From Candidatus Uhrbacteria bacterium (GTDB lineage: Bacteria > Patescibacteriota > Patescibacteriia > UBA9934 > GWF2-40-263): a stretch of DNA of 64,000 nt. Positions 6,978-53,202 of the stretch are shown here, in pieces. The stretch spans positions 138 through 64,137 of the forward strand of contig JACPHT010000001.1 in the NCBI GenBank assembly GCA_016188475.1, written 5' to 3'. The translations under genes were made by a program, and so were the position numbers. Each line of letters begins with the position of its first letter. Position 1 is the stretch's first letter. Below the pieces are notes generated by a model. The model did no database searches. It saw nothing but the letters and a program-made list of their open reading frames with translations, and was not told the origin of the DNA.

Positions 6978-6987
6978 CTAATAATAT

Positions 6988-39559: not shown

Positions 39560-39772
39560 ATGAAGTTCAGCAATCTCAAGGTCGGCGACTGGTTCGAGTT
39601 CGAAGGTAAAAGATACATCAAGATCGAATCTGCGGTTCGACACAATATCGAATGTCTCGCAGTCAATCTCTCGACAGGCCATATGGCGTTTCCTGCCGCT
39701 GGAACTTCATTCAATATTCACGACGTCGAAGTTGAACCGATTCTCAAGCCCTCATGGGCTGAACGTAAATAG
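39560..39772 (+). CDS. small hypothetical protein
   Basis: 70-aa ORF with AAGGAG 8 nt upstream of ATG and a downstream terminator. Confidence 0.45.
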   Translation: MKFSNLKVGDWFEFEGKRYIKIESAVRHNIECLAVNLSTGHMAFPAAGTSFNIHDVEVEPILKPSWAERK

Positions 39773-39812
39773 GCGAGTTCAACTCTCGCTTGCTCTCAAG
39801 TCACTCTCTCTA

Positions 39813-39840
39813 CACTTGGTTCTCCCAAGTGGTTTTTTTA
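39813..39840 (+). terminator. intrinsic terminator
   Basis: CACTTGG-ttctc-CCAAGTG followed by TTTTTTT. Confidence 0.7.
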
Positions 39841-40236
39841 TTCTGTTGTTTGTCCGTCAAATTCCGCTTCATTTGCAACAGCTTCTTCTTTTGTCGCGCG
39901 AACAATTCCATCTTTGTGATGAGCTGGAGAATAAATTGTGTAAAACTTTAGATCTTCCGTGCTCGATGTATTTATAATGTTGTGTTGAGAACCAGTCGGA
40001 ACGATCACAACAACCCCATCTTTAAGTTCATATTCATTTCCATCAATCACACATTTGCCTTGTCCTTTTTCAAAACGAAAAAATTGATCGTTCTCTGGAT
40101 GAACTTCCATGCCGATTTCTTCATTTGGTTTTAGACTCATCAAAACGAGTTGGCTGTGTTTAGATGTGTACAAAACTTTTCTAAAACTATTATTTTCCAA
40201 AGTTGCGTTTTCGATGTTTGTTGTAAAGCCTTTCAT
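39838..40236 (-). CDS. cupin domain protein
   Basis: Two-His cupin motifs (G.EVHPE...H). Confidence 0.65.
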   Translation of the reverse strand: MKGFTTNIENATLENNSFRKVLYTSKHSQLVLMSLKPNEEIGMEVHPENDQFFRFEKGQGKCVIDGNEYELKDGVVVIVPTGSQHNIINTSSTEDLKFYTIYSPAHHKDGIVRATKEEAVANEAEFDGQTTE

Positions 40237-40246
40237 ATTTTTTTGA

Positions 40247-40435
40247 TTATGATTTTTTCTGAAAAAACTTTATGTAAACGATAGGCAAGATGCCAACAGT
40301 GTTAAGAACCAGAATCGCGATAAACCATTTCAACTGATTATTTCTTCCGGATTTCCACAATGCGATTCCTTTCCAAACCGCTTCCCAAATAGCCAACGGA
40401 ATTAACCAAGCAAGAGTTGAAGTGTCGAATTGCAT
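40247..40435 (-). CDS. small membrane protein
   Basis: 62 aa; two TM helices. Confidence 0.35.
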   Translation of the reverse strand: MQFDTSTLAWLIPLAIWEAVWKGIALWKSGRNNQLKWFIAILVLNTVGILPIVYIKFFQKKS

Positions 40436-40441
40436 ACAAAT

Positions 40442-40828
40442 TTAAATCGCACCAATATATTTTTGAATTAACTCAATATCTTTTTTGTCTTTTTCTCTTC
40501 CGAATTGTTTTTTCCATTCAATGACGTATTTCAGTTGCACAAAAGGAAAACTCGCTATTGTTTCTGCATTCTCAATCATTTCATTTATCCTGTCAGACAA
40601 TTCCAACCAATTCCTAAAAATTTCTACGTTGCCGATTTTAAGGCATGTCGAATTATCATGTAATGACATCGGGTATTTTTGAACCAGAATATCCCACAAG
40701 TCTTGTTTGACGATTATATCCAAATCTTCGGACTCTCTGATTCCTCTAACCGCCATTGAACCGCTTCCAAAAATCGCAAATTTTCCCGTCGGTAATTTTA
40801 ACAACTCAAGTTCACTAAGATATTTCAT
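40442..40828 (-). CDS. nucleotidyltransferase-fold protein
   Basis: GSGSMAVRGIRESEDLDIIV resembles the GS...D.D minimal nucleotidyltransferase motif. Confidence 0.4.
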   Translation of the reverse strand: MKYLSELELLKLPTGKFAIFGSGSMAVRGIRESEDLDIIVKQDLWDILVQKYPMSLHDNSTCLKIGNVEIFRNWLELSDRINEMIENAETIASFPFVQLKYVIEWKKQFGREKDKKDIELIQKYIGAI

Positions 40829-40844
40829 ATTTATTGCACTAGGC

Positions 40845-40935
40845 CGGAAATAAATTTCAGATAATGTATCGTGGAAGCCGAAGTTTGTCGTAGCGTAGCG
40901 TAGACAAATTTGCGTGAGCGAGCGTTAAAAATTAT
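40845..40935. other. attC-like imperfect palindrome (outermost recognisable cassette junction)
   Basis: AGCGTAG-rich dyad ending in a GTTAAAA-type box between two minus-strand genes. Confidence 0.35.
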
Positions 40936-40939
40936 TTTC

Positions 40940-41170
40940 TTATACCAAAAAACCATATTCTATTATTAACCCTATGACAAGAAGACTGAGTCCTACAAAG
41001 AATGAGGCCCACCATGGGTGATTTTTTATCTCTTGGCTAAAATGTTTGAGTCGAATGAGTTTGGTATTTTTTCCTGAAGTCTTAACGGTGGGCCGATTAC
41101 CAATAAAGTCACAGTCTTCGACTGTACAGTTATCTCCAGTAATATCTATAAATGGTTTTTTGTCTTCCAT
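40940..41170 (-). CDS. cassette-encoded small membrane protein
   Basis: 76 aa; C-terminal TM helix. Confidence 0.4.
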   Translation of the reverse strand: MEDKKPFIDITGDNCTVEDCDFIGNRPTVKTSGKNTKLIRLKHFSQEIKNHPWWASFFVGLSLLVIGLIIEYGFLV

Positions 41171-41209
41171 AAGAAAATAATTTTTAGCGAGCTAGCCGGC
41201 TAGCCAGTG

Positions 41210-41663
41210 TTAAGTGATGTTGCACACTATTTTCTCGGATTCTTTTAGGATTGTTTTGGCCAATGATCGTTCTTTGCTTGTTGTGGGATGAAAATGTATT
41301 TCTGTTTGATATTTTGGCCACTGATCATGCTGAACACGGAAAAAATGGACGATCTCTGCCTCAATAGCTTCAACATGAACACTATCCTCGAAAATCCATA
41401 CAATCAATGAGTGATCGCCATCTTCTTTTAGCCATTTATAACCATGATAGCCTGTTTTGTGATTTGGCTTTACGCCATACCGAATACGAGAACTCATTGA
41501 TTGTTTTGTGATGCCTACATAGTTAATGAGTCCATTTTTTCCGACCAAATATATCTTTTTTCCCTTTTTCGTGACCGGAGCTACAAAATGTCTGATTCCG
41601 TCATTGGCCAAAACAGAAACAATCTCATTATCCTTTACTTTGATTTTGTAAACAAAGTTCATA
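41210..41663 (-). CDS. cassette-encoded GIY-YIG nuclease-like protein
   Basis: KIYLVGKNGLINYVGITKQSMSSRIRYG fits the GIY-x10-YVG-T...R pattern; start at ATG 41663, with GTG alternative at 41680. Confidence 0.5.
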
Positions 41664-41680: not shown

Positions 41681-41819
41681 TTAACGGCCGGCGGCTGATC
41701 CGAAGTAAAAAGACACCTGACGTTTTTATGTTACAGGTGTCTTTTTATTTTGGATAGCCGCCTGTTGTGCGACGTCGCTTTGCGACGGAGCGCAACAGAG
41801 GCGAAGCCGCCGGCATAAC
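41681..41819. repeat. cassette-junction element, copy 1 (short variant)
   Basis: TTAACGGCCGGCGGC...AAAAAGACACCTG-acgtttttatgtta-CAGGTGTCTTTTT...GCCGCCGGCATAAC. Confidence 0.85.
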
Positions 41820-41882
41820 GTTTGCGTGTATGCGGTGTGGCGTCAGCCATATCGTATACACGCTGTTGTACGGAGTTTGGGC

Positions 41883-42065
41883 TTATCCTTCTCTTGCTTC
41901 TCTTTCTGCTTCGATTTTTTCCAATATCTCTCGTACTTTTTCAGGAGACGCACCAAGCTCTTCGAAGAATCTTACTTGGTCCGATGGAGGAATGGCCATT
42001 AATTTATCCAGGGCATCTTTGGCCTCAGACTCTTGAACTTCATGCTCTCGTGGTTGTTCTCTCAT
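41883..42065 (-). CDS. cassette-encoded small acidic protein
   Basis: 60-aa ORF flanked by attC-like palindromes. Confidence 0.3.
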   Translation of the reverse strand: MREQPREHEVQESEAKDALDKLMAIPPSDQVRFFEELGASPEKVREILEKIEAEREAREG

Positions 42066-42211
42066 ATGTTTAACTTGTTACTGATAAATAGCTAATGTTT
42101 AAATAATAGGATAAGACCAAATTTCGTGCAACGTTCGCGTATGATCCGACGTGATCGACCAGAGGGAGATCATGTTGGATATACGCTGTTAAGCGCCGTA
42201 CTCATTAACAA

Positions 42212-42448
42212 TTACATCGAAGAAAACGGGTCTCCGCATTGAGGACACCTGTCTGAGTTAACTAATCCGTAACTGGTTTTGCAATTTGCGCAATATACAT
42301 TTGCTGCACTTGTACGTCCGTTGGGATCTGGAACCATGGGCACTTTGCATTGAGAGCAAAGCAACTCATTACTGCCAGCGACGGCGGCAATATCAACTGT
42401 ACTATTGCATTGTGGACATTTGTACCCAAAAAATGAACCTGTTTGCAT
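42212..42448 (-). CDS. cassette-encoded zinc-ribbon protein (four CxxC pairs)
   Basis: CPQCN...CSQCK...CANCK...CPQCG. Confidence 0.5.
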   Translation of the reverse strand: MQTGSFFGYKCPQCNSTVDIAAVAGSNELLCSQCKVPMVPDPNGRTSAANVYCANCKTSYGLVNSDRCPQCGDPFSSM

Positions 42449-42466
42449 ATTTTTTCTTATTAAGAA

Positions 42467-42982
42467 TTAGGAACCTATATAAGTTGCAGTGATGTTTCCT
42501 TCTCCCTCGGCTGTGGATTTTGTGCCAGGTTTGAAAAATGTAGGCTTGGTTGTTTTGATGCCAGTTACATTACCTTTGCCTCTAGCAGTGTGTTCGCCGT
42601 CGATGGTAGTAATGAGAGAATTTAAACTTTTGTTCAAATTCTGGGTGGCCCACTCTTCATGCTCTTTTTTCCATTGTTTTAGTTGATCTACAGAGAAATC
42701 AATGCCATTATTTTTGTCGATCATATCAGCACAATTTGAACAAAGAAAAATACCATTATTTGTAGATTTTCTCTGTTCTGATGTTAAGTTTGAGTCATAT
42801 CTTGGGCCACCCTCTGCCGCAGCGGTTATATGGGCTGCTTTGCCTATGTATATAAATTTGTCCTCATTTTCTGCTGATGGGCAAAGTGTCAAATTTTTGC
42901 AATCAGGATTTGAGCAGATATAGGAGGCCCGTTTTCCTATTGCTTCAACTGTATTTTTATCAAATTCGTCTCGAGTTGACAT
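42467..42982 (-). CDS. cassette-encoded HNH endonuclease-like protein
   Basis: CSNPDCKN...AAHI...NGIFLCSNCADMID resembles the HNH beta-beta-alpha-metal motif. Confidence 0.45.
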   Translation of the reverse strand: MSTRDEFDKNTVEAIGKRASYICSNPDCKNLTLCPSAENEDKFIYIGKAAHITAAAEGGPRYDSNLTSEQRKSTNNGIFLCSNCADMIDKNNGIDFSVDQLKQWKKEHEEWATQNLNKSLNSLITTIDGEHTARGKGNVTGIKTTKPTFFKPGTKSTAEGEGNITATYIGS

Positions 42983-43007
42983 AATTTTGTATGTTAATGG
43001 GTATGGC

Positions 43008-43179
43008 GCTTAACGGCCGGCGGCTGATCCGAAGTAAAAAGACACCTGACGTTTTTATGTTACAGGTGTCTTTTTATTTTGGATAGCCGTCTGTTGTGCG
43101 ACGTCGCTTTGCGACGGAGCGCAACAGAGGCGAAGCCGCCGGCCGTTATGCCGATAGAGCAAAGCGATGTCGGCATAAC
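43008..43179. repeat. cassette-junction element, copy 2
   Basis: Near-identical to the other six copies. Confidence 0.85.
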
Positions 43180-43307
43180 GTCCCGCACTTTGCGATGTTT
43201 TGGCCTGTTATAATTTAGCACGAAGTGCTTGAACAGGCCAAAATATGGGCGTAGCGACTGAAAGGAGCGGAGCCGCAAAGTGCGTGTTAAGTGATGTTTT
43301 TATTTTT

Positions 43308-43931
43308 TCAAAGTATGCCAATTGGGCCGATTATTCTAAAGCCCTTCCGAATTGTTTCTTCGGTGTTGATTTCCCAGCACAGTGTCCCATTATAATCCAA
43401 GAATGAAACACCTAAAATTGCGTTATTTCGGGAGGGCGTTTTACTTGCTTTTTCTTGTATAGAATCAAAAATCTTCTTGGTCTTTCCCTTCATATTTTGA
43501 GGAAATTGTACCGGTTTTCTTTGTAGTTCATATGTGACTAAAAATTGCACAAATTTTTTCCAATTTGCTCGTTCACTTAGGAGTGCTCTACTAATGTTTA
43601 GTTCATCGCAGAGATTTTCAATGTTCGTTTTGAGCAAATGAAGGGAAAGACCTTCAATTACGGCGTCATTAATCCAAGTTCCTTCATTTGGATTTTTGTT
43701 ATGAGCGATCACCGCATCTGTTAAAAGTTCCAAAATTCTGAAAGCCGTAATTGAACCGGAGATTTTTGTGTGCAAGGCCCAATTGGCATACAAATTTAAG
43801 TATGGATATTTAGACTGGAAGCCTTTCTCTTCAATGATGTGCCGAAAGGCTGTCATTATTCGGAGGATATCATTTTTACTCCAATTACTATGCGAGAGTA
43901 ATTCTGTGATGTTTTTGATGTGATCTTCCAT
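43308..43931 (-). CDS. cassette-encoded hypothetical protein
   Basis: 207-aa ORF flanked by 27-bp inverted repeats that begin with GTTAAGTGA. Confidence 0.5.
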   Translation of the reverse strand: MEDHIKNITELLSHSNWSKNDILRIMTAFRHIIEEKGFQSKYPYLNLYANWALHTKISGSITAFRILELLTDAVIAHNKNPNEGTWINDAVIEGLSLHLLKTNIENLCDELNISRALLSERANWKKFVQFLVTYELQRKPVQFPQNMKGKTKKIFDSIQEKASKTPSRNNAILGVSFLDYNGTLCWEINTEETIRKGFRIIGPIGIL

Positions 43932-43949
43932 ACTTAAATTTGAAAAATA

Positions 43950-44035
43950 AAAATTTCACTTAACGTTTCGCGATATCCGACGTTTCGTAGAAATGTGGCT
44001 TTAGCCTTTACGGATATCGCGTGTTAGGCGAGGCT
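43950..44035. other. canonical attC-like site
   Basis: ACTTAAC-GTTTCGCGATATCCG...CGGATATCGCG-T-GTTAGGC: RYYYAAC and GTTRRRY boxes with complementary inner arms. Confidence 0.6.
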
Positions 44036-44064
44036 TCAGCTCTTGAGTTTGAATTTAAACTTTT

Positions 44065-44460
44065 TTAATATTTATCCTTAATGTATTTAAGAACTTCTAT
44101 ATCGTGGTCAATAATCTTTAGCTTGTTTATCTCGGAAAGATGAAACCAACCAAAATTTTGTCCTTCGCCTAAAGTAATTATTTTACTCGGATCAAATTCT
44201 TCCACAAAAACATGTTTTTCATTGGTTTCATCTTTCGACAAAAAATCTTGCTTCATTATCATCTTAGGGTTTTTGAGTGTGTAATTCAGCTCTTCAAGTG
44301 TTTCTCGCTTCACAGCCTGTTCTGGAGTTTCACCAGCTTCAATACCGCCACCGAAAAAAGCCCAATATCCAGGCAACCTTTCAGCATCTTCAGCACGATG
44401 TTGAAGTAAGATTTTTTTGTCTTGGTCGTATAAAATTATAATAGCTACGTTTCTCGCCAT
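44065..44460 (-). CDS. cassette-encoded NUDIX hydrolase
   Basis: Nudix box GGGIEAGETPEQAVKRETLEELNY; ORF flanked by 26-bp perfect inverted repeats TTTGAATTTAAACTTTTTTAATATTT. Confidence 0.8.
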   Translation of the reverse strand: MARNVAIIILYDQDKKILLQHRAEDAERLPGYWAFFGGGIEAGETPEQAVKRETLEELNYTLKNPKMIMKQDFLSKDETNEKHVFVEEFDPSKIITLGEGQNFGWFHLSEINKLKIIDHDIEVLKYIKDKY

Positions 44461-44518
44461 ATAGAAGTTCTTAAATGTTAAAATAAAGAAATATTAAAAA
44501 AGTTTAAATTCAAATTTC

Positions 44519-44690
44519 GCCTAACGGCCGGCGGCTGATCCGAAGTAAAAAGACACCTGACGTTTTTATGTTACAGGTGTCTTTTTATTTTGGATAGCCG
44601 CCTGTTGTGCGACGTCGCTTTGCAACGGAGCACAACAGAGGCGAAGCCGCCGGCCGTTATGCCGACAGAGCAAAGCGATGTCGGCATAAC
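44519..44690. repeat. cassette-junction element, copy 3
   Basis: Near-identical copy. Confidence 0.85.
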
Positions 44691-44921
44691 GTTCGTGTGT
44701 ATCTGAAGTTTTCATTCCGCTTCAATGGAATAAACTTTGATTATTAGATACACGCTTTTTAATAGAACCCCACCCAAATCCTCATCAAAACTAAGGGATG
44801 AAAATTTGGGCGGAGGAAAATTGGCACTCCTTAAGGATTTAATTAACGCCAATTTTCCATAGCCAGATACACGCTGTTATACGCTGTAATAAAAAGCCGA
44901 TTCGTTATTGATTTTGGCAAT

Positions 44922-45164
44922 TTATTTTTCTGTTTTGGAACCAAGAAATTTTCCCTCCACTACAACATCTTGTAATGCATTGAATAATTGAAGAACGCCG
45001 TTGCGGTGTTCCTCATTAACTTGAGGAAGTATTTCTTGAGTTAAACGAGCAAGACCTTCTGTAACTTTCCCTTTTGCATATTCTGGTAATGCTTTCATAT
45101 TGGGAGTCAATTCTACTGATAGCGAGGCTTTTGCGCCAACCTCTGGCCTGAATGTTTCTGTCAT
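44922..45164 (-). CDS. cassette-encoded hypothetical protein
   Basis: 80-aa ORF. Confidence 0.35.
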   Translation of the reverse strand: MTETFRPEVGAKASLSVELTPNMKALPEYAKGKVTEGLARLTQEILPQVNEEHRNGVLQLFNALQDVVVEGKFLGSKTEK

Positions 45165-45274
45165 ATTTTTTTAAGTTAATTATTACTTTGATTATACTAT
45201 GAGTTATACTCGACCGCTTCAAATAAATTGCCAAAATCAATATTCAAATTTCACAATCGGCTTTTTATTATGGC

Positions 45275-45446
45275 GTATAACGGCCGGCGGCTGATCCGAA
45301 GTAAAAAGACACCTGACGTTTTTATGTTACAGGTGTCTTTTTATTTTGGATAGCCGCCGGTTGTGCGACGTCGCTTTGCGACGGAGCGCAACAGAGGCGA
45401 AGCCGCCGGCCGTTATGCCGACAGAGCAAAGCGATGTCGGCATAAC
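45275..45446. repeat. cassette-junction element, copy 4
   Basis: Near-identical copy; terminator hairpin at 45303-45347. Confidence 0.85.
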
Positions 45447-45689
45447 GTTCCTGCGTATGCGATGTTTGCCAGTGGTATAATTGCACGAAGTGCTTACCAC
45501 TGGCAAATATGGGTGGAGGCTTGCGGAGGTACGAAGCAAGCCGTAACCGCATACGCAGTGTTATATGATGTACATGTTTTCCTTTAATTTCTGAAAGAAA
45601 TTGCTCTTATAAAAGAATCCGGTTTTGTTTTTCCGTTTGGGGCGAAGGGCAGAGGGGATTAAGGGGTGAATGCCCGAGCCCCAAACACT

Positions 45690-46298
45690 TTAATCTTCTT
45701 CACCCTCAATTCTTTTTCTGCGCTCATCTAGCGTTTCGCCTTCATACATCCAATAAGCTGTTCCTTGAATTCCGTAATCATAACCGAGAATTTTTTGTGC
45801 AGAAGAAGAAAGACTTGTAACTTTGCCATTAAAATTGATGGATTTATTATCAACCACATTTGCCTTAATGTTTTCATCGCGACTAAAAATTAATTCTGCA
45901 CCAACCGGAATGTTGACCATCTTAAAATTAAACTTAGCTCGCATTTCTGCACGTGCTTGATTTAGGGCATGCTGATCTTCTTTTGATTCCACGAAGTCTT
46001 TTTTAGGCGTAATATCTTCAATCTCTGCCAATTTAAGTGCAGAAACTACACGTTCTGGAGAGATTTGAAAAAATTCTCGTCTTGGATTTGTTCGGTTATT
46101 GTCAAATGCATCATGTAGCTGATGTTCAACAAAGGCTGCGTCTTTTACGGTACATGCGTAGAAACAAGTAAAAGGAAGTGGAACGCTCGTGGAAGCGCTA
46201 AGCTCTCTAATCCTTTGCTCAAGGCTTGTTGAAGTTTTGCCAATTTTTACATATCCAGGCATGGCTTCATTGATGAGAATGTAGATGATTTCAATCAT
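45690..46298 (-). CDS. T5orf172 (GIY-YIG-like) domain protein, second gene of the candidate defense pair
   Basis: IYILINEAMPGYVKIGKT...RIREL...PLPF...RREFF matches the T5orf172 pattern; start ATG overlaps the upstream stop (ATGA). Confidence 0.6.
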   Translation of the reverse strand: MIEIIYILINEAMPGYVKIGKTSTSLEQRIRELSASTSVPLPFTCFYACTVKDAAFVEHQLHDAFDNNRTNPRREFFQISPERVVSALKLAEIEDITPKKDFVESKEDQHALNQARAEMRAKFNFKMVNIPVGAELIFSRDENIKANVVDNKSINFNGKVTSLSSSAQKILGYDYGIQGTAYWMYEGETLDERRKRIEGEED

Positions 46299-48013
46299 AA
46301 TTTTATAGATTTATTTGGTGCTAAAAGTTCCTTAATTTTTGAAATTAAAGGTTTGAAATTCCCAAAAGTATCCGAGCTGGTTTCAGCTTGAACTTTATTT
46401 AAAAATTTGCCTTTATCGAAAGTGGTGATTGACGTAGTTGCACTATATGAGCCAGGTCTTACTTCCGTAGAGTAAACGTCATCTGTGAATAAGGTATCGG
46501 GGTATAGATTTTCAATGCCAACAGCTTTTCCATCTTTATCTTTAGCCTTTGTATTTGCAGAATTTTCCGCAAAGCAAAACTTTTTAAAGCTTTCTGTTTC
46601 TGTAATGCTGTTTATCATGGAGGCGCAGTCACAATCCCAAACAAAAAGGAACTTTCCGCTAAAATCACCGGACGACATTACGTCAAAAGCGTTTTTCAAC
46701 TGTTGCCCGCGCTTATCTGGCGAACCTTCTATAATTTTAATTTGACTAAGTAAAGTGTTGTCGAGGATTTCAAAAGCTTTTTTAATATGCTCTGTATTAT
46801 TTCCCTCCGTAACAATTTGTAAACTTTTCGTGCCATCAATCTCTTTTTGTATTTTTAAACCCTTTTCAAAGGTTATGATCCCCTCGCTTAAAAGGTTAAT
46901 AGCGTCTCCCTGTGATATTTTTCTGATTTTTTCATTTTTTTTGCCCTTCTGTATCTCAAATAGTGATTCTTCATATGCTAATGCGACCGTGGTCGGAGAA
47001 TGGGTAGCAAGAATAACCTTACAGCCGTTTTTTATGAACACATTTTGAATCACATCCAATAAATCTTGAATCATGGATGGATGAAGTGATGCATCTACTT
47101 CATCAAGAAGTAACAATGCAGGAAATTCTGATTTGTTATCTTGATAAACTGTAATAGCCAGTGCGCACAATATCTTTTCACCCGATGACAAGTCTTCAAA
47201 ATCAATTTCTTCATCATCTATGGAGAGTTTTACTTGAAATGATACAGCTTGACTATTTATCAGATCTCCAGCTGTAAATTCTGGATGTGAAATAGTATGA
47301 AGTAGCCCAAACTCTTTAAACATGCTGTTTACAAAATTCCATGGAGATTGTTCTTCTATTTTTTTGATTTGGCTATCGTTTAATCCTTCTCCGCCGTCGC
47401 TTTCTCTTAATTTTGCCACGGTTAGTTTTTTTTGATAATCAAGAAAAACTTCGCTTAAACTTTCTAGAAGCTCGTACTCATCTGGGCTGTAGTTTGAAAA
47501 TTTAAAAAATTCTGCCTGTGTGATTTCCGAAGCGTATTTAACAGACTCGAATACGCCCGTTTTTAAAAGCTTCTTAATTTTGGGATTATCTTTTGTATGC
47601 TTATTTATAAAGGTTAGAATATCCTTTTTTTGTTCAGCGTATTTTTGTTTTTGTGCTTTTGGCACTTCAAAATCATAGGGGTACTCCTTTTCGCCCACGA
47701 ATGTTTTAATTTGATTGTCGTAATTTTGGAATTGTTGCCTTTGAGAATTTAAGATATTCCACGCTTGCATTTTTTCATCATCAAGATTCCGTGGGGCAAT
47801 TTTAGCCTGGTTCTTTATGAGAAATGTTTGTAGGTTAAAGTACGAAATCCTTTCTTTTTGTATGTTGTCAGCTGAAACAAAGCCCTCTTGCATCGCCTTG
47901 AGCAAGTGAGTTTTTCCAGCGCCGTTTACACCTAGAAATATCGAAAAGTCCTTAATATCAATTTCACTAAAGTTGGCGATTGATTTATGTTTTTGATTGA
48001 ATTTAATATTCAT
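46295..48013 (-). CDS. OLD-like ABC-type ATPase fused to a C-terminal TOPRIM-like nuclease domain
   Basis: Walker A GVNGAGKTHLLKA, ABC signature LSSGEKI, Walker B LLLLDEVDASLHP, H-loop ATHSP; C-terminal IVTEGNNTE ... FVWDCDC resembles TOPRIM Glu and DxD. Confidence 0.6.
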   Translation of the reverse strand: MNIKFNQKHKSIANFSEIDIKDFSIFLGVNGAGKTHLLKAMQEGFVSADNIQKERISYFNLQTFLIKNQAKIAPRNLDDEKMQAWNILNSQRQQFQNYDNQIKTFVGEKEYPYDFEVPKAQKQKYAEQKKDILTFINKHTKDNPKIKKLLKTGVFESVKYASEITQAEFFKFSNYSPDEYELLESLSEVFLDYQKKLTVAKLRESDGGEGLNDSQIKKIEEQSPWNFVNSMFKEFGLLHTISHPEFTAGDLINSQAVSFQVKLSIDDEEIDFEDLSSGEKILCALAITVYQDNKSEFPALLLLDEVDASLHPSMIQDLLDVIQNVFIKNGCKVILATHSPTTVALAYEESLFEIQKGKKNEKIRKISQGDAINLLSEGIITFEKGLKIQKEIDGTKSLQIVTEGNNTEHIKKAFEILDNTLLSQIKIIEGSPDKRGQQLKNAFDVMSSGDFSGKFLFVWDCDCASMINSITETESFKKFCFAENSANTKAKDKDGKAVGIENLYPDTLFTDDVYSTEVRPGSYSATTSITTFDKGKFLNKVQAETSSDTFGNFKPLISKIKELLAPNKSIKL

Positions 48014-48192
48014 AGTTTACTTCAAGTGTGGAAATCACAAATTGGCGTTATTTTACTCCGTTTCCTCCTATAAATAAATCGTTTTCGGAGCGGAGCGTAG
48101 AAAACTCCTTATTTCCCCTCTATAAAAAAAGAAAAACAAAACCGGATTCTTTTTAAGAGCTTGGCGAAGCCAAAAAGGAAAACATGTATTTC

Positions 48193-48340
48193 ATATAACG
48201 GCTGGCGGCTGATCCGAAGTAAAAAGACACCTGACGTTTTTATGTTACAGGTGTCTTTTTATTTTGGATAGCCGCCTGTTGTGCGACGTCGCTTTGCGAC
48301 GGAGCGCAACAGAGGCGAAGCCGCCGGCCGTTATGCCGAC
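48193..48340. repeat. cassette-junction element, copy 5
   Basis: Near-identical copy (CGGCTGG variant at the left arm). Confidence 0.85.
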
Positions 48341-48481
48341 AGAGGCGGAACAAAAATTTGGGAGAAGGAATTTTTCTTACCTTGAATTATAAATGTGAAA
48401 AATTCCTGAACCGGATATGCCGTGTTGTGCGATGTCCGCATTTGCCCGCCCTTGTTAGTTGGAAATGGATGCCCCGAAATC

Positions 48482-49060
48482 TTATTGCAAAATCTTTTCC
48501 AATAGTTCAGGAAACTCCTCGGTTTTCATATCGCCCAAGCAGTAATGACCTCGCCCTTTTAGCTCGACAATCTCGCCACCAAGCACCTCATGAAAAATTT
48601 TTAAACTTTTTTTACCGTCTTCCTCCTCGTCGTCCGCAGTGAACATAACTATTTGATTTATCCTATCCTTGATAGACGAGTCAATCTGATATGTATAGAA
48701 ATTTACATCGGTACCACTTCTTTTTTCTTGCGGAATTTTCCAAGGCGCGACTAAAAAAAGTTTAAAAATTTTGGTCTTAGTCTCACTAAGCCAGCGAACC
48801 AAGAAGGCGCAACCGCAACTATGTCCAACTAAAATTGTGTTTTCATCAACAGTATATTTTTCAAATTCAGCCTTAAATTTTTCATAATCAGGTTGCCAAG
48901 GCGAGGGCATGAGAGGAGTTTCCGTTTCAATATTTTTTGCAATAAGATTTCTTTTTAACCACGGAATCCAGTGCTTGTCATAAGTCCTTGTTTCAGGATT
49001 CATCGCTTTTTCAGCATCAGAGGGGCATCCATGGATTATGATACATCTATTCTTTGTCAT
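48482..49060 (-). CDS. cassette-encoded alpha/beta hydrolase (RBBP9/YdeN-like serine hydrolase)
   Basis: IIIHGCPS ... LVGHSCG nucleophile elbow. Confidence 0.55.
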   Translation of the reverse strand: MTKNRCIIIHGCPSDAEKAMNPETRTYDKHWIPWLKRNLIAKNIETETPLMPSPWQPDYEKFKAEFEKYTVDENTILVGHSCGCAFLVRWLSETKTKIFKLFLVAPWKIPQEKRSGTDVNFYTYQIDSSIKDRINQIVMFTADDEEEDGKKSLKIFHEVLGGEIVELKGRGHYCLGDMKTEEFPELLEKILQ

Positions 49061-49325
49061 ATGGTTGAATGTTATTTTTAGCACTAGGGCAAATGCGGAT
49101 TTCGCACAACGTATCCAAATATCTGAAGTTTCGCACTTTGGTTTTAAGGCTAAAATCTTTGATATCCAGACTATTTTGTTAGTTTAATTATACTATACAT
49201 TATCACAAAACGGAAAAGTGCGAAATTTGGGTCGAGAAAATTTTTCACTCTTTATTATTTCTAATAAATGAAAAATTTTGGAGCCAGATATTTGGTGTTC
49301 AACGATGTTGCGAGGATTTTCGTTT

Positions 49326-49547
49326 TTATTTCTCAGAATGTTTTAATTTAATCAAATCATATATTGCAGAAACGGTAAAAATAATTTGCAAAATAATAAA
49401 TATTAAATCGCTTAGGTAAATACTGTATATTTCCAGGCATACTCCGCCAACAATATACATCAAGTCCTGCGTACGACGATTTTTATTTATAATGCCAGCG
49501 GATATTAATAATAATCCGACCGCGCCTATCATCTTAAAAATTGACAT
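49326..49547 (-). CDS. cassette-encoded small membrane protein
   Basis: About 73 aa; three hydrophobic helices. Confidence 0.4.
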   Translation of the reverse strand: MSIFKMIGAVGLLLISAGIINKNRRTQDLMYIVGGVCLEIYSIYLSDLIFIILQIIFTVSAIYDLIKLKHSEK

Positions 49548-49594
49548 ATTATTTTGCAAATTATTTTGTTTTCAGGAAAAAATCCTCGCAATTT

Positions 49595-49700
49595 CGTTGA
49601 ACGTTCACCGATAAGCGAAGTTTTATTGAGCAAAGCGAAATAAAATTTGCGAAAAACTCGGGCTGAGAGTTTTTCCGCTTATCGCGTTGTTATACGCCCC
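49595..49700. other. attC-like site
   Basis: TTGAAC-GTTCACCGATAAGCG...CGCTTATCGCG-T-GTTATAC. Confidence 0.55.
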
Positions 49701-49758
49701 GAGCGAAACGAAGTGTAGCGAGAGCGCAGCGTGGTGCGGAGCGTAGCGGAGCAAGTTG

Positions 49759-50262
49759 CTAATTTGCCCGTTTCATCTGCTGGACTTTTTTTAAAAACAC
49801 AATATCTCTTTGCTGAATAAAAGAACCCTCATAATTTGTTGGTTTATCGTTTTCAACTTTGGAAATTGCTTCATCTAATGGCAACCAAACGAGTTTAAAG
49901 TTTTGGCTTAATTCCTCTTCCGTGAAAGCAGGCGACCCTTTTGATGTTATTTTGCCTATATAACAATAGGATATTTGTTTCAAATTGAAATTTGAACGAT
50001 ATTCAATAATTTCCCCAACTTCACCAGTGACTTTAATTTCACTCCCGACTTCTTCCATAACTTCGCGGACCAGAGCTGCGGCCTTATTTTCGCCATCGTC
50101 GATTCCGCCGCCAGGTAATTTGTGATAGTTATAATTTGAAACAAATAGAAGAGGAATTAAGCCATTCTCGTCAAAAAGCACAGCTCTTGATGCTTCTCTA
50201 ATTTCCAAAGTTGATTCATCTTTAGGCCACTCTTTGTCTTTTATCTCGTGTAATAGTTCCAT
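49759..50262 (-). CDS. cassette-encoded NUDIX hydrolase
   Basis: Nudix box GGGIDDGENKAAALVREVMEEVGSE. Confidence 0.8.
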   Translation of the reverse strand: MELLHEIKDKEWPKDESTLEIREASRAVLFDENGLIPLLFVSNYNYHKLPGGGIDDGENKAAALVREVMEEVGSEIKVTGEVGEIIEYRSNFNLKQISYCYIGKITSKGSPAFTEEELSQNFKLVWLPLDEAISKVENDKPTNYEGSFIQQRDIVFLKKVQQMKRAN

Positions 50263-50323
50263 AGTAAATTATGAGGGTTCTTTATTTTTATAAATGTATC
50301 GGCAAGGGCAAATTAGCAATTGC

Positions 50324-50468
50324 GTATAACGGCCGGCGGCTGATCCGAAGTAAAAAGACACCTGACGTTTTTATGTTACAGGTGTCTTTTTATTTTGGAT
50401 AGCCGCCTGTTGTGCGACGTCGCTTTGCGACGGAGCGCAACAGAGGCGAAGCCGCCGGCCGTTATGCC
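50324..50468. repeat. cassette-junction element, copy 6
   Basis: Near-identical copy. Confidence 0.85.
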
Positions 50469-50549
50469 ATTACCGCCTAAGCGAGAGAAGGATGGCGTAT
50501 ACGCGCTGTTGTACGATTGCAGAACACCAACTTGAATTATGTAATCTTG

Positions 50550-51158
50550 CTAAATAGTAGTATGGACAAAGTCGTAAAATTGAGAAAAGTCTTTGACGAC
50601 AATAGACGGATTGCCGTTAATTAAATTTTGTTCATTTTGGTAACCACCAAGAATTCCAACAATTATTTTCACACCAACCTTCTTAGCTTCAGCAATATCT
50701 CCGGCTGTGTCGGTAATAAAAGTAACATTATTGGGTTCCAGAGCATATTTTTCAAATAGCATCTTAAATTTTTCTACCTTGCTTGTATGAACCTCATTGC
50801 CAAGAATCTTTTGAAAACAGGATAGTATGCCATGGCTCTGAAGATAGTCTTGAATGATATCACTTCGAGTACTTGAAATAATAAATAGTTGGAACTCTTG
50901 TGATAATTTTTGAATAAAGTCTTTCTTTTTTGAATCAATACCTAAATGTTTGAAACGGTCCCCGTACTCTCTAAAAAAGTCTATTTTTTTTACGACTTTG
51001 TCCTCGTATTTTACTTCATTAATATTACCATTGAAGGCATTTTGATATCGCTCCAAAGTTAAAGTTGGCCTTGAGAGCTTATTCACTTCAAAAGCTATGT
51101 CAAAACTATCAGCGATTACTCCATCAAAGTCGAAGATAATAGTAGGCTTATGATCCAT
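50550..51158 (-). CDS. cassette-encoded HAD-family hydrolase
   Basis: IIFDFDGVIADS motif I (DxDG). Confidence 0.7.
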   Translation of the reverse strand: MDHKPTIIFDFDGVIADSFDIAFEVNKLSRPTLTLERYQNAFNGNINEVKYEDKVVKKIDFFREYGDRFKHLGIDSKKKDFIQKLSQEFQLFIISSTRSDIIQDYLQSHGILSCFQKILGNEVHTSKVEKFKMLFEKYALEPNNVTFITDTAGDIAEAKKVGVKIIVGILGGYQNEQNLINGNPSIVVKDFSQFYDFVHTTI

Positions 51159-51189
51159 AGATCTTAAATAAAAGGGTGTTCTGCTTTTC

Positions 51190-51305
51190 GTACAACGTTC
51201 GCGCATAAGCGATGTTTGCCAGTTGTATAATATGCCGTTAGGCTTACAACTGGCAAATATGGGTGGAGCGACGAGGTACGAGGAGCGGAACCGTTTATGC
51301 GCTGT
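51190..51305. other. attC-like site
   Basis: GTACAAC-GTTCGCGCATAAGCG...CGTTTATGCGC-T-GTTAAGT with internal TTTGCCAGTTGTA/TACAACTGGCAAA dyad. Confidence 0.55.
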
Positions 51306-51326
51306 TAAGTGATGTGTTTGAGAATT

Positions 51327-52034
51327 CTACTTCAAATAGGTTTCCAGATTTTTGACCATTCGCCCCACATAAAGGTTTAGGCTTTTTTGGCCAATTTCCT
51401 TATTAACAATCCAATCGGGATGATTATCTGCAATTCCATTCGGACTTTTTTCAGCTATATTATCAGTTTCAAAGGCATCTTCGATGAAGGTCTTTTTTTC
51501 GTCTTTGCTTGGCGGAATGACAGTCGCTTCATCTATTACCATCATGTTTGAAATTTCGGTATTGCCTGCATGTCCATCTGATGGACCGCCAAGCATTTCA
51601 ACAAGCTTTTGTTCATCCTCATCGTTGCACATCTCAAGATGAACTATTTTAGCGGGCTGAAAAAAGTCCGATTTTTCTCGGATAAACTTTTGAATATATG
51701 GGTCATTATGATGAAACGATGTAATGAAAATATAATCTGCTTTTTGAAAAATAGAATTGCAGATATCAAACATTACTTGAGCAAGTGTTTCTTCGGTAAG
51801 ATAGACTGTGCCAAAAAAGCCACGGTGCTCTTGTGCACGAGAGAACTCTAACGTTGGAAGAATTACCAGCTCAGGAAACTGTTTCTCAACTTGATCAACA
51901 AGATAGTCAGTAATATACGTGTCAGTACCGAAGGGGGCGAATGGTCCATGTTGCTCAAGCGAACCTATTGGAACGACGAAATTGTATTTTGTATCACCAG
52001 ATAAATCTGGAAACCTCATTCTTTTTAATCTCAT
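51327..52034 (-). CDS. cassette-encoded creatininase-family amidohydrolase
   Basis: VVPIGSLEQHGP ... GTD ... GHAGNTE motifs. Confidence 0.65.
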   Translation of the reverse strand: MRLKRMRFPDLSGDTKYNFVVPIGSLEQHGPFAPFGTDTYITDYLVDQVEKQFPELVILPTLEFSRAQEHRGFFGTVYLTEETLAQVMFDICNSIFQKADYIFITSFHHNDPYIQKFIREKSDFFQPAKIVHLEMCNDEDEQKLVEMLGGPSDGHAGNTEISNMMVIDEATVIPPSKDEKKTFIEDAFETDNIAEKSPNGIADNHPDWIVNKEIGQKSLNLYVGRMVKNLETYLK

Positions 52035-52065
52035 ATTTTTAGTATAGATGAATTCTCAAACATTT

Positions 52066-52214
52066 CACTTAACGGCCGGCGGCTGATCCGAAGTAAAAAG
52101 ACACCTGACGTTTTTATGTTACAGGTGTCTTTTTATTTTGGATAGCCGCCTGTTGTGCGACGTCGCTTTGCGACGGAGCGCAACAGAGGCGAAGCCGCCG
52201 GCATGTCGGCATAA
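52066..52214. repeat. cassette-junction element, copy 7 (short variant), proximal to the recombinase
   Basis: Near-identical copy about 155 bp from the recombinase start. Confidence 0.85.
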
Positions 52215-52371
52215 CTAGTAAATATACGAACTTGTGTCGGATAAAATACTTTGAAAATGAATTATATGATGTGAGTAACCTGCGTTGACAAGTACATGAA
52301 ATCATGTAACAATAAGATTGTAAATAACCTCCTATTCTAATCTTGATGGGCGGTTTTTTTATATCTTCAAT

Positions 52372-53202
52372 ATGTTTTTAATTTCTAATACCGAACAAGC
52401 GTTGTTGTCTATTGACCAACTTCTACGCATAAAAAATTACAGTCCAAAAACAATAAAAAGTTACAAGGGCTGTTTGGCTAGATTCTTAAAACAGTTTCCT
52501 GATTGTTTGAACTATTCAAACATCGAGTGTATCAAAACATTCCTTTTATCCATGCGCGAATCTGGATTATCTCCTCAAACTATCAATGTACATCTTCAGG
52601 CAATACAATTTTATTTTCGTGAAATCTTACATCAACCATTCCGTTTCACTCTACCATACGCAAAACGACCGAAACGGTTGCCTGTCATACTTTCTAGATC
52701 AGAAATTGAACAAATTCTAAACCATATATCAAACACAAAACATAAAACCATGATCGCTCTGGCTTATGGGGCGGGACTCCGTGTCTCTGAAGTGGTTGAG
52801 TTGCGCTCTGGAAACGTAGATTTTCCTTCCGGAGTTTTATATATTTATCAAAGTAAAGGCAAAAAAGATCGTATAACAATTCTTCCAGAAATATTGCGCG
52901 ATGAATTACAAAAAGCGGTTTGTGGAAAATCACCGAACGATTATCTTTTTGCCAGCGAACGAGGCGGACGTTTGTCTGAACGTTCAATTCAAAAAGTATT
53001 TTCTCGTGCGCTTCATTCAACACAGATAAACAAACAAGCAACATTTCATTCACTGCGTCATAGCTTCGCAACACACGTTTTGGAACAAGGAACTGACATC
53101 AGATTCATTCAAAAACTTCTTGGCCATGCAAATATTAGAACAACACAAATTTACACTCACGTTTCAACAGCTTCTATCAGTGCAATCAAAAGCCCGCTAT
53201 AG
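52372..53202 (+). CDS. tyrosine site-specific recombinase, integron-integrase-like (XerC/D superfamily)
   Basis: R...HSLRHSFATHVLEQGTDIRFIQKLLGH...TTQIYTHV catalytic core; LPVILSRSEIEQIL and GAGLRVSEVVELRSGNVDF...YQSKGKKDRIT segments resemble IntI as recalled; transcribed divergently from the cassette array; appears to lack the long IntI-specific insertion. Confidence 0.7.
   Translation: MFLISNTEQALLSIDQLLRIKNYSPKTIKSYKGCLARFLKQFPDCLNYSNIECIKTFLLSMRESGLSPQTINVHLQAIQFYFREILHQPFRFTLPYAKRPKRLPVILSRSEIEQILNHISNTKHKTMIALAYGAGLRVSEVVELRSGNVDFPSGVLYIYQSKGKKDRITILPEILRDELQKAVCGKSPNDYLFASERGGRLSERSIQKVFSRALHSTQINKQATFHSLRHSFATHVLEQGTDIRFIQKLLGHANIRTTQIYTHVSTASISAIKSPL

Follow-up and report, generated by a model that had tools for sequence, protein, structure and literature searches.

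The repeat that recurs at the cassette junctions of this Candidatus Uhrbacteria contig is probably a gene cassette without an ORF that has multiplied within an integron-like chromosomal array. Elements of this type are known, and this one is an unusual variant; it is neither a transposon nor a CRISPR array. We prefer this reading to that of a MITE or of a part of the neighbouring attC because a G|TT crossover point marks each end of the repeat, its 5' end follows the same complementarity rule as the ORF cassettes, and it is present or absent at attI and within the arrays of relatives. Its nearly invariant orientation and its confinement to these arrays also point to a gene-less cassette in its own right.

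A homogeneous repeat in a cassette array

The window (the whole stretch of 64,000 nucleotides that was analysed) comes from an ultra-small bacterium of the CPR. It contains an integron-like gene-capture array in which minus-strand ORFs alternate with imperfect AAC...GTT palindromes, adjoining a divergent gene for a 276-aa tyrosine recombinase (Table 1). The repeats were thus correctly placed at cassette junctions by the earlier note. The array sites measure 55-200 nt and show a bottom-strand folding bias. VchIntIA is the best solved relative of the recombinase. We use the name integron by analogy only, since the recombinase lacks about 43 residues of the IntI-specific insertion, which in VchIntIA contacts extrahelical bases, and scores below the NCBIfam cut-offs for both IntI and XerA.

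Seven copies of the element span 41.7-52.2 kb, all oriented like the minus-strand genes. Any two of their 132-nt cores differ by 0-3 nt (identity of at least 97.7%), which bears out the earlier description of seven near-identical copies. No eighth copy was found by an nhmmer profile search of the 64-kb window. The element stands at 7 of about 17 cassette junctions, so it is indeed optional, with about half of the junctions lacking it. GC-rich inverted arms had been assigned to each copy; both arms (TAACGGCCGGCGGC / GCCGCCGGCCGTTA) are complete in five of the seven, while 31 nt are deleted inside the copy at 41681 and 23 nt inside that at 52066, and the copy at 48193 has one arm substitution, GCCGCCAGCC, a G.T wobble on the + strand. 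The second hairpin attributed to longer copies, GTTATGCCGACA..TGTCGGCATAAC, is present but complete in three only (43008, 44519 and 45275).

Table 1. Features of the array and its recombinase, in window coordinates
Feature	Position	Strand	Details
Tyrosine recombinase	52372..53202	+	276 aa, IntI/XerA-like; catalytic motifs present; divergent from array
attI-like region	52215..52300	-	ends ...AAGTTCGTATATTTACTAG|TT; conserved in relatives through G, divergent beyond
Copy 1	52073..52214	-	first cassette past attI-like site; 23-nt internal deletion; G|TTATGCCGACAT-GCCGGCGGC...GCCGCCGGCCG|TT
Copy 2	50330..50470	-	core fused to upstream HAD-hydrolase cassette, whose attC is the R''-L'' half only
Copy 3	48199..48344	-	core fused to upstream Ser-hydrolase cassette (R''-L'' half only)
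Copy 4	45281..45445	-	full 165-nt ORF-less cassette: 5' hairpin P0, outer stem, P2, terminator-like P3
Copy 5	44525..44689	-	full form
Copy 6	43014..43178	-	full form
Copy 7	41685..41818	-	short form, 31-nt internal deletion; G|TTAT-GCCGGCGGC...
Core starts	41682, 43011, 44522, 45278, 48196, 50327, 52070		+ strand positions of the 132-nt cores
Hairpin P3 (example copy)	45303..45342	.	AAAAAGACACCTG, 14-nt loop, CAGGTGTCTTTTT
Hairpin P3, other copies	41707-41746, 43036-43075, 44547-44586, 48221-48260, 50352-50391, 52095-52134
Ordinary attC-type site (example)	43964..44034	-	R''ext, A, L''(11), loop, L', AAAC, G|TT
Further ordinary attC sites	49602-49700, 49110-49310, 45446-45571, 44690-44887, 43179-43297, 42132-42199, ~51196-51322, ~41819-41882

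Boundaries and predicted fold of the element

The full repeat (~165 nt) is delimited by two G|TT crossover points. Past the first, all copies share a constant sequence, the 5' end of the element; past the last, the sequence is variable and belongs to the next cassette. The upstream attC-like palindrome ends in a box of its own, AAC-G|TTATGCC, and the element therefore sits between two crossover boxes, not between the L' arm of that palindrome and its actual crossover box, as had been proposed. Read in gene sense, it begins with TTATGCCGACA, directly after the G of the preceding site, and continues with an 11-nt loop where other cassettes hold an ORF. There follow an R'' box, TGTCGGCATAAC, complementary to the element's own 5' end, and a perfect GC-rich outer stem, GGCCGGCGGCT / AGCCGCCGGCC, which encloses the hairpins P2 and P3. 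The last base is the G of the next G|TT.

The ORF cassettes have heterogeneous attC sites of their own, from which the homogeneous repeat is separate. When the 5' end of a cassette is compared with the reverse complement of its own R'', 4.9 of 5 variable positions match, against 2.7 of 5 in non-self pairs, and the element shows the same complementarity through its 5' hairpin.

The predicted single-stranded fold of the element is a Y-shaped three-way junction of attC type, with P3 at the tip of one arm and z-scores of -6 to -12 across four lineages. The bottom-strand fold is 7-10 kcal/mol more stable than that of the gene-sense strand, and the bias has the same direction in the five ordinary attC sites tested. 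Compensatory changes in P0 and the outer stem keep the fold in four Uhrbacteria lineages; in the outer stem they reach the crossover itself, where AAC..GTT becomes AAT..ATT. This stem has neither an unpaired spacer nor a bulged base, unlike ordinary sites with their 1-nt and 4-nt spacers, and the element may for this reason be recognised differently. An internal 88-nt site with exactly the ordinary attC design also lies inside the element, and could instead be the working site.

These features suggest how the element may have spread. The IntI-like recombinase of the array would excise and insert it at G|TT in the same way as the ORF cassettes, and its small size and many donor copies would have carried it to its present share of the cassettes. 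Two copies would later have become fused to upstream ORF cassettes through deletion.

Distribution among relatives

Matches to the element numbered three in genomes, all Uhrbacteria, and seven in metagenomes; all lie in such arrays, and none was found in viral contigs, plasmids or phages. Identity between lineages falls to 58-93%. Further copies and empty sites, for which the earlier note had proposed a search, both exist among relatives. The attI is followed by the element in the window, L001, L004, L006, L016 and L024-26, and directly by an ORF cassette (after ...AG|TT) in L002, L022 and L027-29; by population, the element is the first unit past attI in six of nine. At the position of copy 1, L001, which is of the same population and has a 100% identical recombinase, carries an undeleted 5' hairpin, and L002 lacks the element. 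L024 and L026 differ by one ORF cassette and one element copy. Such presence and absence, at attI and within arrays, supports the earlier suggestion of a separable, non-autonomous mobile unit. Of 25 oriented copies, at least 24 point the same way as the cassettes, the exception being one inverted copy at a contig end (L002). No circular or tandem junction of the element was found among the relatives' loci examined. The L027 locus, which lacks the element, has an rve-family integrase-core gene ~0.7 kb upstream of its recombinase gene.

The terminator-like hairpin P3

All seven copies contain the hairpin AAAAAGACACCTG-14 nt-CAGGTGTCTTTTT, as the earlier note had reported; its label of a perfect intrinsic terminator is an interpretation, given a stem of 8 bp (13 bp with an A/T extension) and a 14-nt loop. 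The calculated RNA dG of the 8-bp stem is -11.3 kcal/mol in sense and -13.4 kcal/mol in antisense, and with the extension -16.5 and -18.6 kcal/mol. P3 would be the stronger terminator on the antisense strand, where transcription runs towards the recombinase gene and the U-tract, UUUUUAUUUU, is the better of the two. A simple terminator scan did not call P3 because its loop limit was 8 nt. Ordinary attC sites do not terminate transcription, according to a review (PMC8876359).

Among window-type copies, changes occur in the loop and none in the 8-bp stem. The L024 lineage (60% identity) has a wholly different stem with the A5/T5 flanks kept, and its hairpin folds with the flanks at an RNA dG of -29 to -35 kcal/mol. 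In L009-type and L016-type relatives, the hairpins at the same position lack T-tracts and are hence of a non-terminator kind. An insulator function of the element is plausible but unproven, because L024 retains the A5-stem-T5 design with a new stem while these two other lineages do not have a terminator; judged by sequence, their hairpins argue against termination as the defining function of the family. That the A5-stem-T5 hairpin acts as a bidirectional terminator, insulating cassettes and also, where the element comes first, the recombinase gene, has in our view somewhat less than an even chance.

A broader proposal, which overlaps with the gene-less cassette, treats the element as serving primarily at the level of RNA or transcription, either as a structured ncRNA or as a mobile terminator and insulator that works in both directions; selection would keep it for its control of cassette and recombinase expression, with cassette mobility as its vehicle. 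Such selection would fit the spared stem of window-type copies, the replaced stem between conserved flanks in L024, the frequent first place after attI and the stronger antisense hairpin facing the recombinase gene. It would not account for the relatives without a T-tract hairpin at P3, nor for a strand bias that favours the bottom strand over the sense transcript. The 3' strand of the outer stem lies past the putative termination point and yet covaries, which a terminated RNA leaves unexplained. An Rfam search of the element gave no family match, and no promoter was found inside it. We consider this proposal possible but rather unlikely.

Alternative origins of the repeat

The element could also belong to the upstream ORF cassette, as the distal portion of a long composite attC that is homogenised by gene conversion, and would then have no mobility of its own. 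Sedentary chromosomal integrons typically have homogeneous long attC repeats, five copies directly adjoin an upstream attC, and two copies are the sole complete 3' site of an ORF cassette. However, the element stands alone right after attI, with no upstream ORF cassette, in the window, L004 and L024, and these attI-proximal copies largely refute the composite. Moreover, the upstream attC sites are complete down to a G|TT of their own and form boundaries at other places without the element, and attI is empty of it in some relatives and filled in others. We regard a composite attC as improbable.

The earlier note had also offered an element of transposon type that targets the R' box, comparable to IS1111-attC and group IIC-attC elements. 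As a MITE-like transposon, or a derivative of either of these, it would be moved by a transposase or RT encoded elsewhere. The perfect 14-15-bp terminal inverted repeats, the single inverted copy and an apparent GTTA duplication recall such elements, but the duplication is the shared crossover core. The mobile unit extends past the inverted repeats to take in a 5' hairpin, and its start coincides exactly with G|TT, as the comparison of L001 and the window with L002 at attI indicates. When the crossover base changes (AAC/GTT to AAT/ATT), the inverted repeats change with it, as an R''/R' pair should. The 5'-end/R'' rule, the fixed orientation and the restriction to arrays speak against a transposon as well; no transposase gene was seen in most arrays examined (for the rve-family gene of L027, see above), and Rfam gave no group II intron match. 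This origin is very unlikely.

A CRISPR array, which the earlier note had rightly set aside, or an assembly artefact might be suspected from the regular interspersion of repeats with unique DNA, and is refuted by units of 132-165 nt that lie 756-2918 nt apart with ORFs between them, and by the same element in independent JGI, ENA, NCBI and Logan assemblies.

Comparison with known systems

The species-specific attC repeats of sedentary chromosomal integrons (VCR of Vibrio cholerae, XCR, PAR) are imperfect palindromes of more than 100 nt, homogeneous and near-identical within a genome, diverged between species, and with branched tips in long sites. The gene-less cassette resembles them in its length (>100 nt) and branched palindromic fold, and its near-identity within the genome and divergence between lineages may be read by analogy as for these repeats. 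It differs in that the homogeneous repeat is a separate unit, not the attC of ORF cassettes, and in its perfectly paired outer stem.

The pdif modules of Acinetobacter plasmids are moved by XerC/XerD at dif-like, double-stranded sites of 28 bp. They share with this array a Xer-type recombinase without the IntI insertion and modular gene units, whereas the much longer AAC...GTT palindromes here, with their folding bias, are integron-like. IS1111-attC and group IIC-attC elements likewise lie within attC sites of cassette arrays in fixed orientation; they exceed 1 kb, encode a transposase or reverse transcriptase and insert at other attC positions, whereas the element has no ORF or ribozyme match and is delimited by recombinase crossover points. 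Like bidirectional Rho-independent terminators, P3 has a GC-containing stem with an A-tract on one side and a T-tract on the other, so that both strands yield a hairpin and U-tract. Unlike them, it has a 14-nt loop, varies among family members and forms part of a larger conserved DNA fold, which is closed by a stem downstream of the U-tract.

ORF-less integron cassettes are known, with promoter-bearing examples in oral Treponema and sRNA cassettes in a Xanthomonas integron (PMC8876359). The element agrees with these as a non-coding unit within crossover points that has its own attC-type palindrome, can occupy the first place after attI or one further along the array, and may affect transcription. 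It departs from them in being almost wholly a folding site, with ~11 nt of cargo, in recurring at so many positions of one array as a family conserved across Uhrbacteria lineages, in carrying a terminator-like hairpin rather than a promoter, and in its host, a CPR bacterium with a recombinase that is without the IntI-specific insertion.

Boundaries of the element and the cassette rule

By testable criteria, the element is an integron cassette without an ORF. Direct-repeat detection, alignment and exact-word searches located seven copies in the window, named here by their first reported positions (Table), and their 132-nt cores differ pairwise by 0-3 nt, which bears out the earlier note's description of seven copies more than 95% identical. 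A profile search with nhmmer found no eighth copy in the 64-kb window. All seven copies lie on the minus strand, in the sense of the surrounding genes, and each contains the hairpin P3, formed by AAAAAGACACCTG, a 14-nt loop and CAGGTGTCTTTTT. The GC-rich inverted arms said to bound every copy are complete in five of the seven but incomplete in the other two, and the second hairpin ascribed to longer copies, GTTATGCCGACA..TGTCGGCATAAC, is complete in three and incomplete elsewhere. Internal deletions remove 23 nt from copy 52066 and 31 nt from copy 41681; the undeleted form is seen at the place of copy 52066 in L001, a locus from the same population as the window.

Read in gene sense, a full copy follows L' of the upstream site with AAC, G|TTATGCCGACA, the loop tcgctttgctc, TGTCGGCATAAC and GGCCGGCGGCT, continues through the hairpins P2 and P3, and closes with AGCCGCCGGCC and G|TTNNNN. 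The upstream palindrome has its own crossover box (AAC-G|TT), and the element therefore lies between two G|TT points, rather than between the upstream L' arm and the crossover box of that same site as had been proposed. Both ends of the element are crossover points of core sites (GTTRRRY). In 19 copies, the first G|TT is followed by constant sequence and the last by variable sequence, which is that of the next cassette. The attI junction is kept up to the G in five genomes, and in L024, a related locus, the boundary base co-varies (A|TT with R'' AAT).

In integron cassettes, the 5' end can pair with the R'' (inverse core) box of the same cassette, a trace left by the circular form. Among 11 ORF cassettes and the element, 5' ends matched their own R'' at 4.9 of 5 variable positions, against 2.7 of 5 for non-self pairs, and the element obeys this rule through its 5' hairpin (P0). 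At all cassette boundaries between 41.7 and 52.1 kb, the 5' end can pair over about 20 nt with the stretch that precedes the R'' of the same cassette (for example, 48177-48199 against 45560-45582), apart from a 2-nt mismatch conserved at positions 10-11 (GAAAT against GATGT). The classical core is 7 nt, whereas the complementarity in this array is far longer, indicating that the R box is extended. The element is in effect a cassette in which an 11-nt loop is all that remains of the ORF. The ORF cassettes preceding copies 50324 and 48193 keep only the R''-L'' half of their own sites; these two copies are deletion fusions of the fused-cassette type, a known kind (PMC8876359).

Fold of the element and its conservation

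As a single strand, the element folds into a Y, in which an outer stem closes the imperfect hairpin P2 and the long hairpin P3. The z-scores of this fold are -8 to -12 in the window and -6 to -12 across four lineages. Four types of relatives, with 93% (L004-type), 73% (L024-type), 68% (L009-type) and 59% (L016-type) identity to the window element, all fold into the same Y despite their different sequences. The outer stem is perfect over 14-15 bp in three different sequences, with compensatory changes, and P0 carries compensatory changes at three pairs among close relatives. In L024, A replaces the base preceding |TT and T replaces the final base in the R'' of the element; this paired change links the 3' arm of P0 with the last crossover box, the two forming an R''/R' pair.

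In all four lineages, the fold on the gene-sense strand is less stable by 7-10 kcal/mol than that on the bottom strand (the window's plus strand), and the ordinary attC-type sites show a bias in the same direction (five of five tested). Such a bias is expected of a recombination site that acts as DNA and folds on its bottom strand, as integron sites do, and not of a structure under selection in the sense transcript. Like an attC site, the element is an imperfect palindrome that folds as a single strand, preferentially the bottom one.

Canonical attC sites carry an unpaired central spacer and extrahelical bases between the R and L boxes. The outer stem of the element lacks spacers and bulges altogether, whereas ordinary sites of the array have a 1-nt and a 4-nt spacer. 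An internal 88-nt site has exactly the ordinary attC design of the array (R'' ACGTCGCACAAC, A, GGCGGCTATCC ... GGATcAGCCGCC, GGCC, GTT), with its 1-nt/4-nt spacers and a bulged C, as in site 42190/42132, and could on that ground be the working site. Close relatives do not separate this site from the outer-stem fold, but the AAT/ATT covariation in L024 favors the outer stem, and the internal site is retained here as no more than a possible alternative conformer. L005 was considered as a natural ORF cassette using the internal site alone; this was rejected, a deletion there having fused a truncated Doc-like ORF with the element. The element thus resembles a minimal cassette in which the 5' half is duplicated and each copy of it can pair with the single 3' half, with which both co-vary in L024; the recombinase may use either fold.

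A conserved hairpin module, CCCATATTTGCCAGTGG...CCACTGGCAAACATCGC, recurs in several ordinary attC sites. Within it, read in cassette sense, TTGCCA-N18-TATTAT/AATTAT resembles a promoter (a consensus scan gave 10/12 and 9/12 matches), and the module may be a cassette-borne promoter inside the attC tip. In L002, a DpnI-like ORF sits inside an attC site, between L'' and L', with 16-nt inverted repeats GTTCAAAAATTTTCAC / GTGAAAATTTTTGAAC on its flanks. The tips of two attC sites in the window consist of the same AAAATTTTTCA/TGAAAAATTTT hairpin with no ORF in it.

The terminator-like hairpin P3

P3 forms the end of one Y arm and is the counterpart of the attC 'variable terminal structure'. It had been described as a perfect bidirectional intrinsic terminator, which is an interpretation. 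Its 8-bp stem (5 G-C pairs) has a U5 tract on both strands, the loop is 14 nt long, and a simple consensus terminator scan did not flag the hairpin, a miss due to that loop. The predicted RNA stability of the 8-bp stem is -11.3 kcal/mol in sense and -13.4 kcal/mol in antisense, reaching -16.5 and -18.6 kcal/mol with the A/U extension, and the tracts that follow are UUUUUACUU in sense and UUUUUAUUUU in antisense.

L024 has a wholly different P3 stem (CCACCGAC/GTCGGTGG) between the same flanks, TATCCAAAATAAAAA and TTTTTACTTCGGATCAG, a compensatory replacement that keeps the design, and in window-type copies substitutions fall in the P3 loop and spare the stem; both observations support a function of P3. 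Against termination as the purpose of the family, L009-type and L016-type elements have GC-rich or irregular hairpins without T-tracts at this position, and for classical integrons the idea of attC as a terminator has been largely dismissed for lack of T-tracts (PMC8876359). Weighing these, we consider a genuine terminator or insulator a tentative reading, somewhat more doubtful than credible. If real, the terminator would be stronger for antisense transcription running through the array towards the recombinase gene. A consensus scan found no promoter-like site inside the element, and an sRNA transcribed from the promoter-like hairpin in the upstream attC as far as P3 was rejected, as only two of the seven copies have that module upstream.

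The recombinase and the attI-like site

The best PDB match of the tyrosine recombinase beside the array is the Vibrio integron integrase VchIntIA (2a3v), and the two share the C-terminal SPL motif. Their alignment breaks where residues 181-240 of VchIntIA are replaced by query residues 183-199, indicating that the IntI-specific insertion (~43 residues) is missing. The alignment with archaeal XerA is unbroken from one end to the other and scores similarly, and in NCBIfam the protein falls under the cut-offs for XerA and IntI (TIGR02249, 205.7 bits against a cut-off of 265). The window array thus does not adjoin an integrase with the IntI-specific additional domain used as an integron criterion, and because this defining domain is absent we call the system integron-like by analogy and not a canonical integron.

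Recombinase homologues of 270-289 aa are abundant in Patescibacteria. In relatives, synteny of the recombinase gene with the thioredoxin-reductase/IF-2 side is kept, with a small-ORF array opposite. Their attI-like sequence is kept as far as ...AG and departs precisely at G|TT in L002, L004 (81-83% identity), L024-26 (60%), L027-29 (63%) and L022 (62%), and apparently also in L018 (53%). The junction ...CGTATAT..AG|TT is kept across Patescibacteria homologues facing cassette arrays (L002, L004, L018, L022, L024-L029), and the whole has the appearance of a CPR-wide integron-type system run by an IntI-like recombinase.

Related loci add side observations. In L016/L017, an Uhrbacteria relative with 55% identity, lexA lies directly downstream of the recombinase gene (2515-3138 and 2170-2793), reminiscent of the SOS control of integron integrases. 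In L006 (JACQXU010000007.1, 3300-3540), from the same MAG as L003, the attI-like sequence and the element lie on a contig other than that of the recombinase gene and adjoin a 267-aa ORF, with crossover GCT in place of GTT; this locus may be rearranged or inactivated. L027, from which the element is absent, has an rve-family integrase-core gene near the recombinase.

Presence, absence and probable mobility of the element

The attI-like site is empty of the element, with an ORF cassette directly after the G, in L002, L022 and L027-29, and carries it in the window, L001, L004, L006, L016/17 and L024-26, always starting with T after the G. Within arrays, L024 and L026 differ by one MFS cassette and one element copy. 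The attI-like site and the array interior are thus both polymorphic in relatives, and the element comes and goes whole, as the optional, separable unit that the earlier note had envisaged; its presence and absence at attI or attC sites point to mobility. That note had named two patterns that would speak against it, copies in this array only, with neither empty-site or filled-site polymorphism nor termination activity, and copies throughout the genome unrelated to recombination sites; polymorphism was seen both at attI and inside arrays, and copies were found in arrays only. Searches returned three genome matches, all Uhrbacteria MAGs, and seven metagenome contigs, with no match in viral contigs or, by BLAST, in plasmids and phages.

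The element comes first after attI in six of nine populations, which are phylogenetically non-independent. Cassette sense holds for at least 24 of 25 oriented copies, the exception being a contig-end copy in L002. This inverted copy occupies positions 1-106 of L002/L007, where contig Ga0394675_000352 ends, and comes immediately after a DUF1653 cassette. It reflects either a true inversion or insertion by way of the near-palindromic site, or else faulty assembly at the contig end.

In the mechanism we propose, the adjacent recombinase would cut at G|TT on the folded bottom strand, and the unit would travel in the form of a small circle. Its shortness and the large number of donor copies would favor multiplication and perhaps the frequent first position, and the identical 132-nt direct repeats would also promote deletions such as those observed. 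A free circle or tandem copy would be marked by the junction GGATCAGCCGCCGGCCG|TTATGCCGACATCGC (also ...CAGCCGCCGGCCG|TTRTGNCGAMATCGC), and none was present in the 29 fetched loci.

The array and its cargo

The array (40.8-52.3 kb) consists of small minus-strand ORFs with AAC...GTT imperfect palindromes between them. Housekeeping genes flank it, with thioredoxin-reductase-like, IF-2, TruB and RNase Y genes on one side and GDH and LeuRS on the other. Part of the cassette cargo resembles anti-phage defense in its predicted proteins. At the distal end, the sole attC-like sequence is degenerate and is followed by four small ORFs without recognizable sites before GDH, which are probably decayed or fixed cassettes. 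The thioredoxin-reductase-like gene encodes 368 aa in the window against 313-328 aa in relatives and contains a tandem repeat of 2 x 60 nt (75% identical); the greater length and the repeat together suggest that it may carry an in-frame insertion or duplication. Exact-protein look-ups of two neighboring cassette proteins turned up nothing but short contigs; these came from runs whose accession numbers are adjacent, probably one study, and gave no new context.

Coordinates and sequences of features in the window and in related loci (L numbers)
Feature	Location	Strand	Details
Element copy 41681	core start 41682 (plus-strand coordinate)	-	
Element copy 43008	core start 43011	-	
Element copy 44519	core start 44522	-	
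Element copy 45275	core start 45278	-	
Element copy 48193	core start 48196	-	
Element copy 50324	core start 50327	-	
Element copy 52066	core start 52070	-	
Tyrosine recombinase	52372-53202	+	276 aa; divergent from and adjacent to the array
Cargo ORFs	array	-	creatininase-like amidohydrolase, HAD hydrolase, two NUDIX proteins, serine hydrolase
Cargo ORFs	array	-	AriA/PtuA-like ATPase and PDC-S57/T5orf172 protein (paired); HNH-like protein
Paired cargo cassette	45690-48013	-	one cassette; AriA/PtuA-like ABC ATPase with PDC-S57 (T5orf172) protein
Endonuclease cassette	42467-42982	-	PDC-M68A/HNH-like
Attachment-site hairpin module	45444-45518, 51194-51268, ~43190-43250		window
Attachment-site hairpin module	L024 ~6950-7050 and 6150-6260; L008; L011		related loci
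DpnI-like ORF inside attC	L002 ~1740-2300 (gene sense)		
ORF-free tip hairpins	48340-48420, 49230-49300		motifs in two window attC sites
Distal array end	39464-41210		four small ORFs; degenerate attC-like sequence ~40850-40925
Thioredoxin-reductase-like ORF	53213-54319	-	tandem repeat at 53897-54016
Outer stem, window type			AACGGCCGGCGGCT / AGCCGCCGGCCGTT
Outer stem, L024			AATGGGCGGCGCCT / AGGCGCCGCCCATT
Outer stem, L016			AACGCGCGCGGCTGA / TCAGCCGCGCGCGTT

Rejected identities

A MITE or other IS-derived transposon is an unlikely account of the element. The mobile unit at attI includes the 5' hairpin, which lies outside the inverted repeats, and the suggested target-site duplication, GTTA, is the crossover core common to all cassettes. 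MITEs disperse in both orientations; here copies are confined to arrays and nearly all point one way. No full-length autonomous relative with matching termini was seen in the fetched loci, and no transposase gene in most arrays examined, though L027 has the rve-family gene described above.

IS1111-attC elements encode a DEDD transposase, and group IIC-attC introns a reverse transcriptase with a group II ribozyme. An element of either kind targeting the R' box, as had been suggested, is not what we find: the unit is 165 nt long, ends at G|TT, has no ORF and gave no group II intron match in Rfam. The Rfam search (38-54 kb, E<=1) returned only miRNA-type hairpin matches far below gathering scores and no known family. 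CRISPR repeats are short (~25-50 nt) with short, uniform spacers, and units of 132-165 nt spaced 756-2918 nt apart with ORFs between them are, as already noted, no CRISPR array.

Discussion

The element is a real feature and known in kind; ORF-less cassettes and homogeneous attC repeats have both been described. This single non-coding cassette makes up about 40% of the array. Its Y fold is conserved by compensatory changes across lineages whose recombinases are only 55-60% identical, which argues that it is selected or, at the least, that it is a very successful selfish cassette. Its bidirectional-terminator-like arm reopens, in testable form, the question of whether attC-type structures terminate transcription.

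The setting is a conserved chromosomal cassette array in ultra-small CPR bacteria, with a recombinase that lacks the domain reading extrahelical bases. If the system is general, integron finders that require the IntI domain would under-report integrons across a large part of the bacterial tree, and the system would bear on the evolution of IntI from Xer-type recombinases. Domain-based finders would probably miss such a CPR-wide system. The searchable literature on integrons in CPR/Patescibacteria yielded resistome surveys only and no description of such an array, which is absence of evidence only.

A broader reading joins a distinct integron-type system of Uhrbacteria (probably of many Patescibacteria), the element as a dedicated component of its platform and no passive passenger, and a bidirectional terminator arm; taken as a whole, we judge it unlikely. 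In this combination, an IntI/XerA-like recombinase without the IntI-specific domain may run gene capture. The perfectly paired, easily extruded three-way junction of the element may be a preferred landing pad and recombination hub, which would explain why the element is usually first after attI and duplicated with new cassettes. The conserved A5-stem-T5 arm may insulate the recombinase gene and split the array into independently expressed modules.

As an ORF-less cassette, the element invites comparison with known systems. Its homogeneity within a genome is similar to that of VCR-type repeats. It differs from known ORF-less cassettes in consisting of almost nothing but a folding site, in its high copy number, in a spacer-less outer stem with a duplicated 5' half, and in one arm that is terminator-like. 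Its host system differs from known integrons in being a CPR array served by a recombinase without the IntI insertion.
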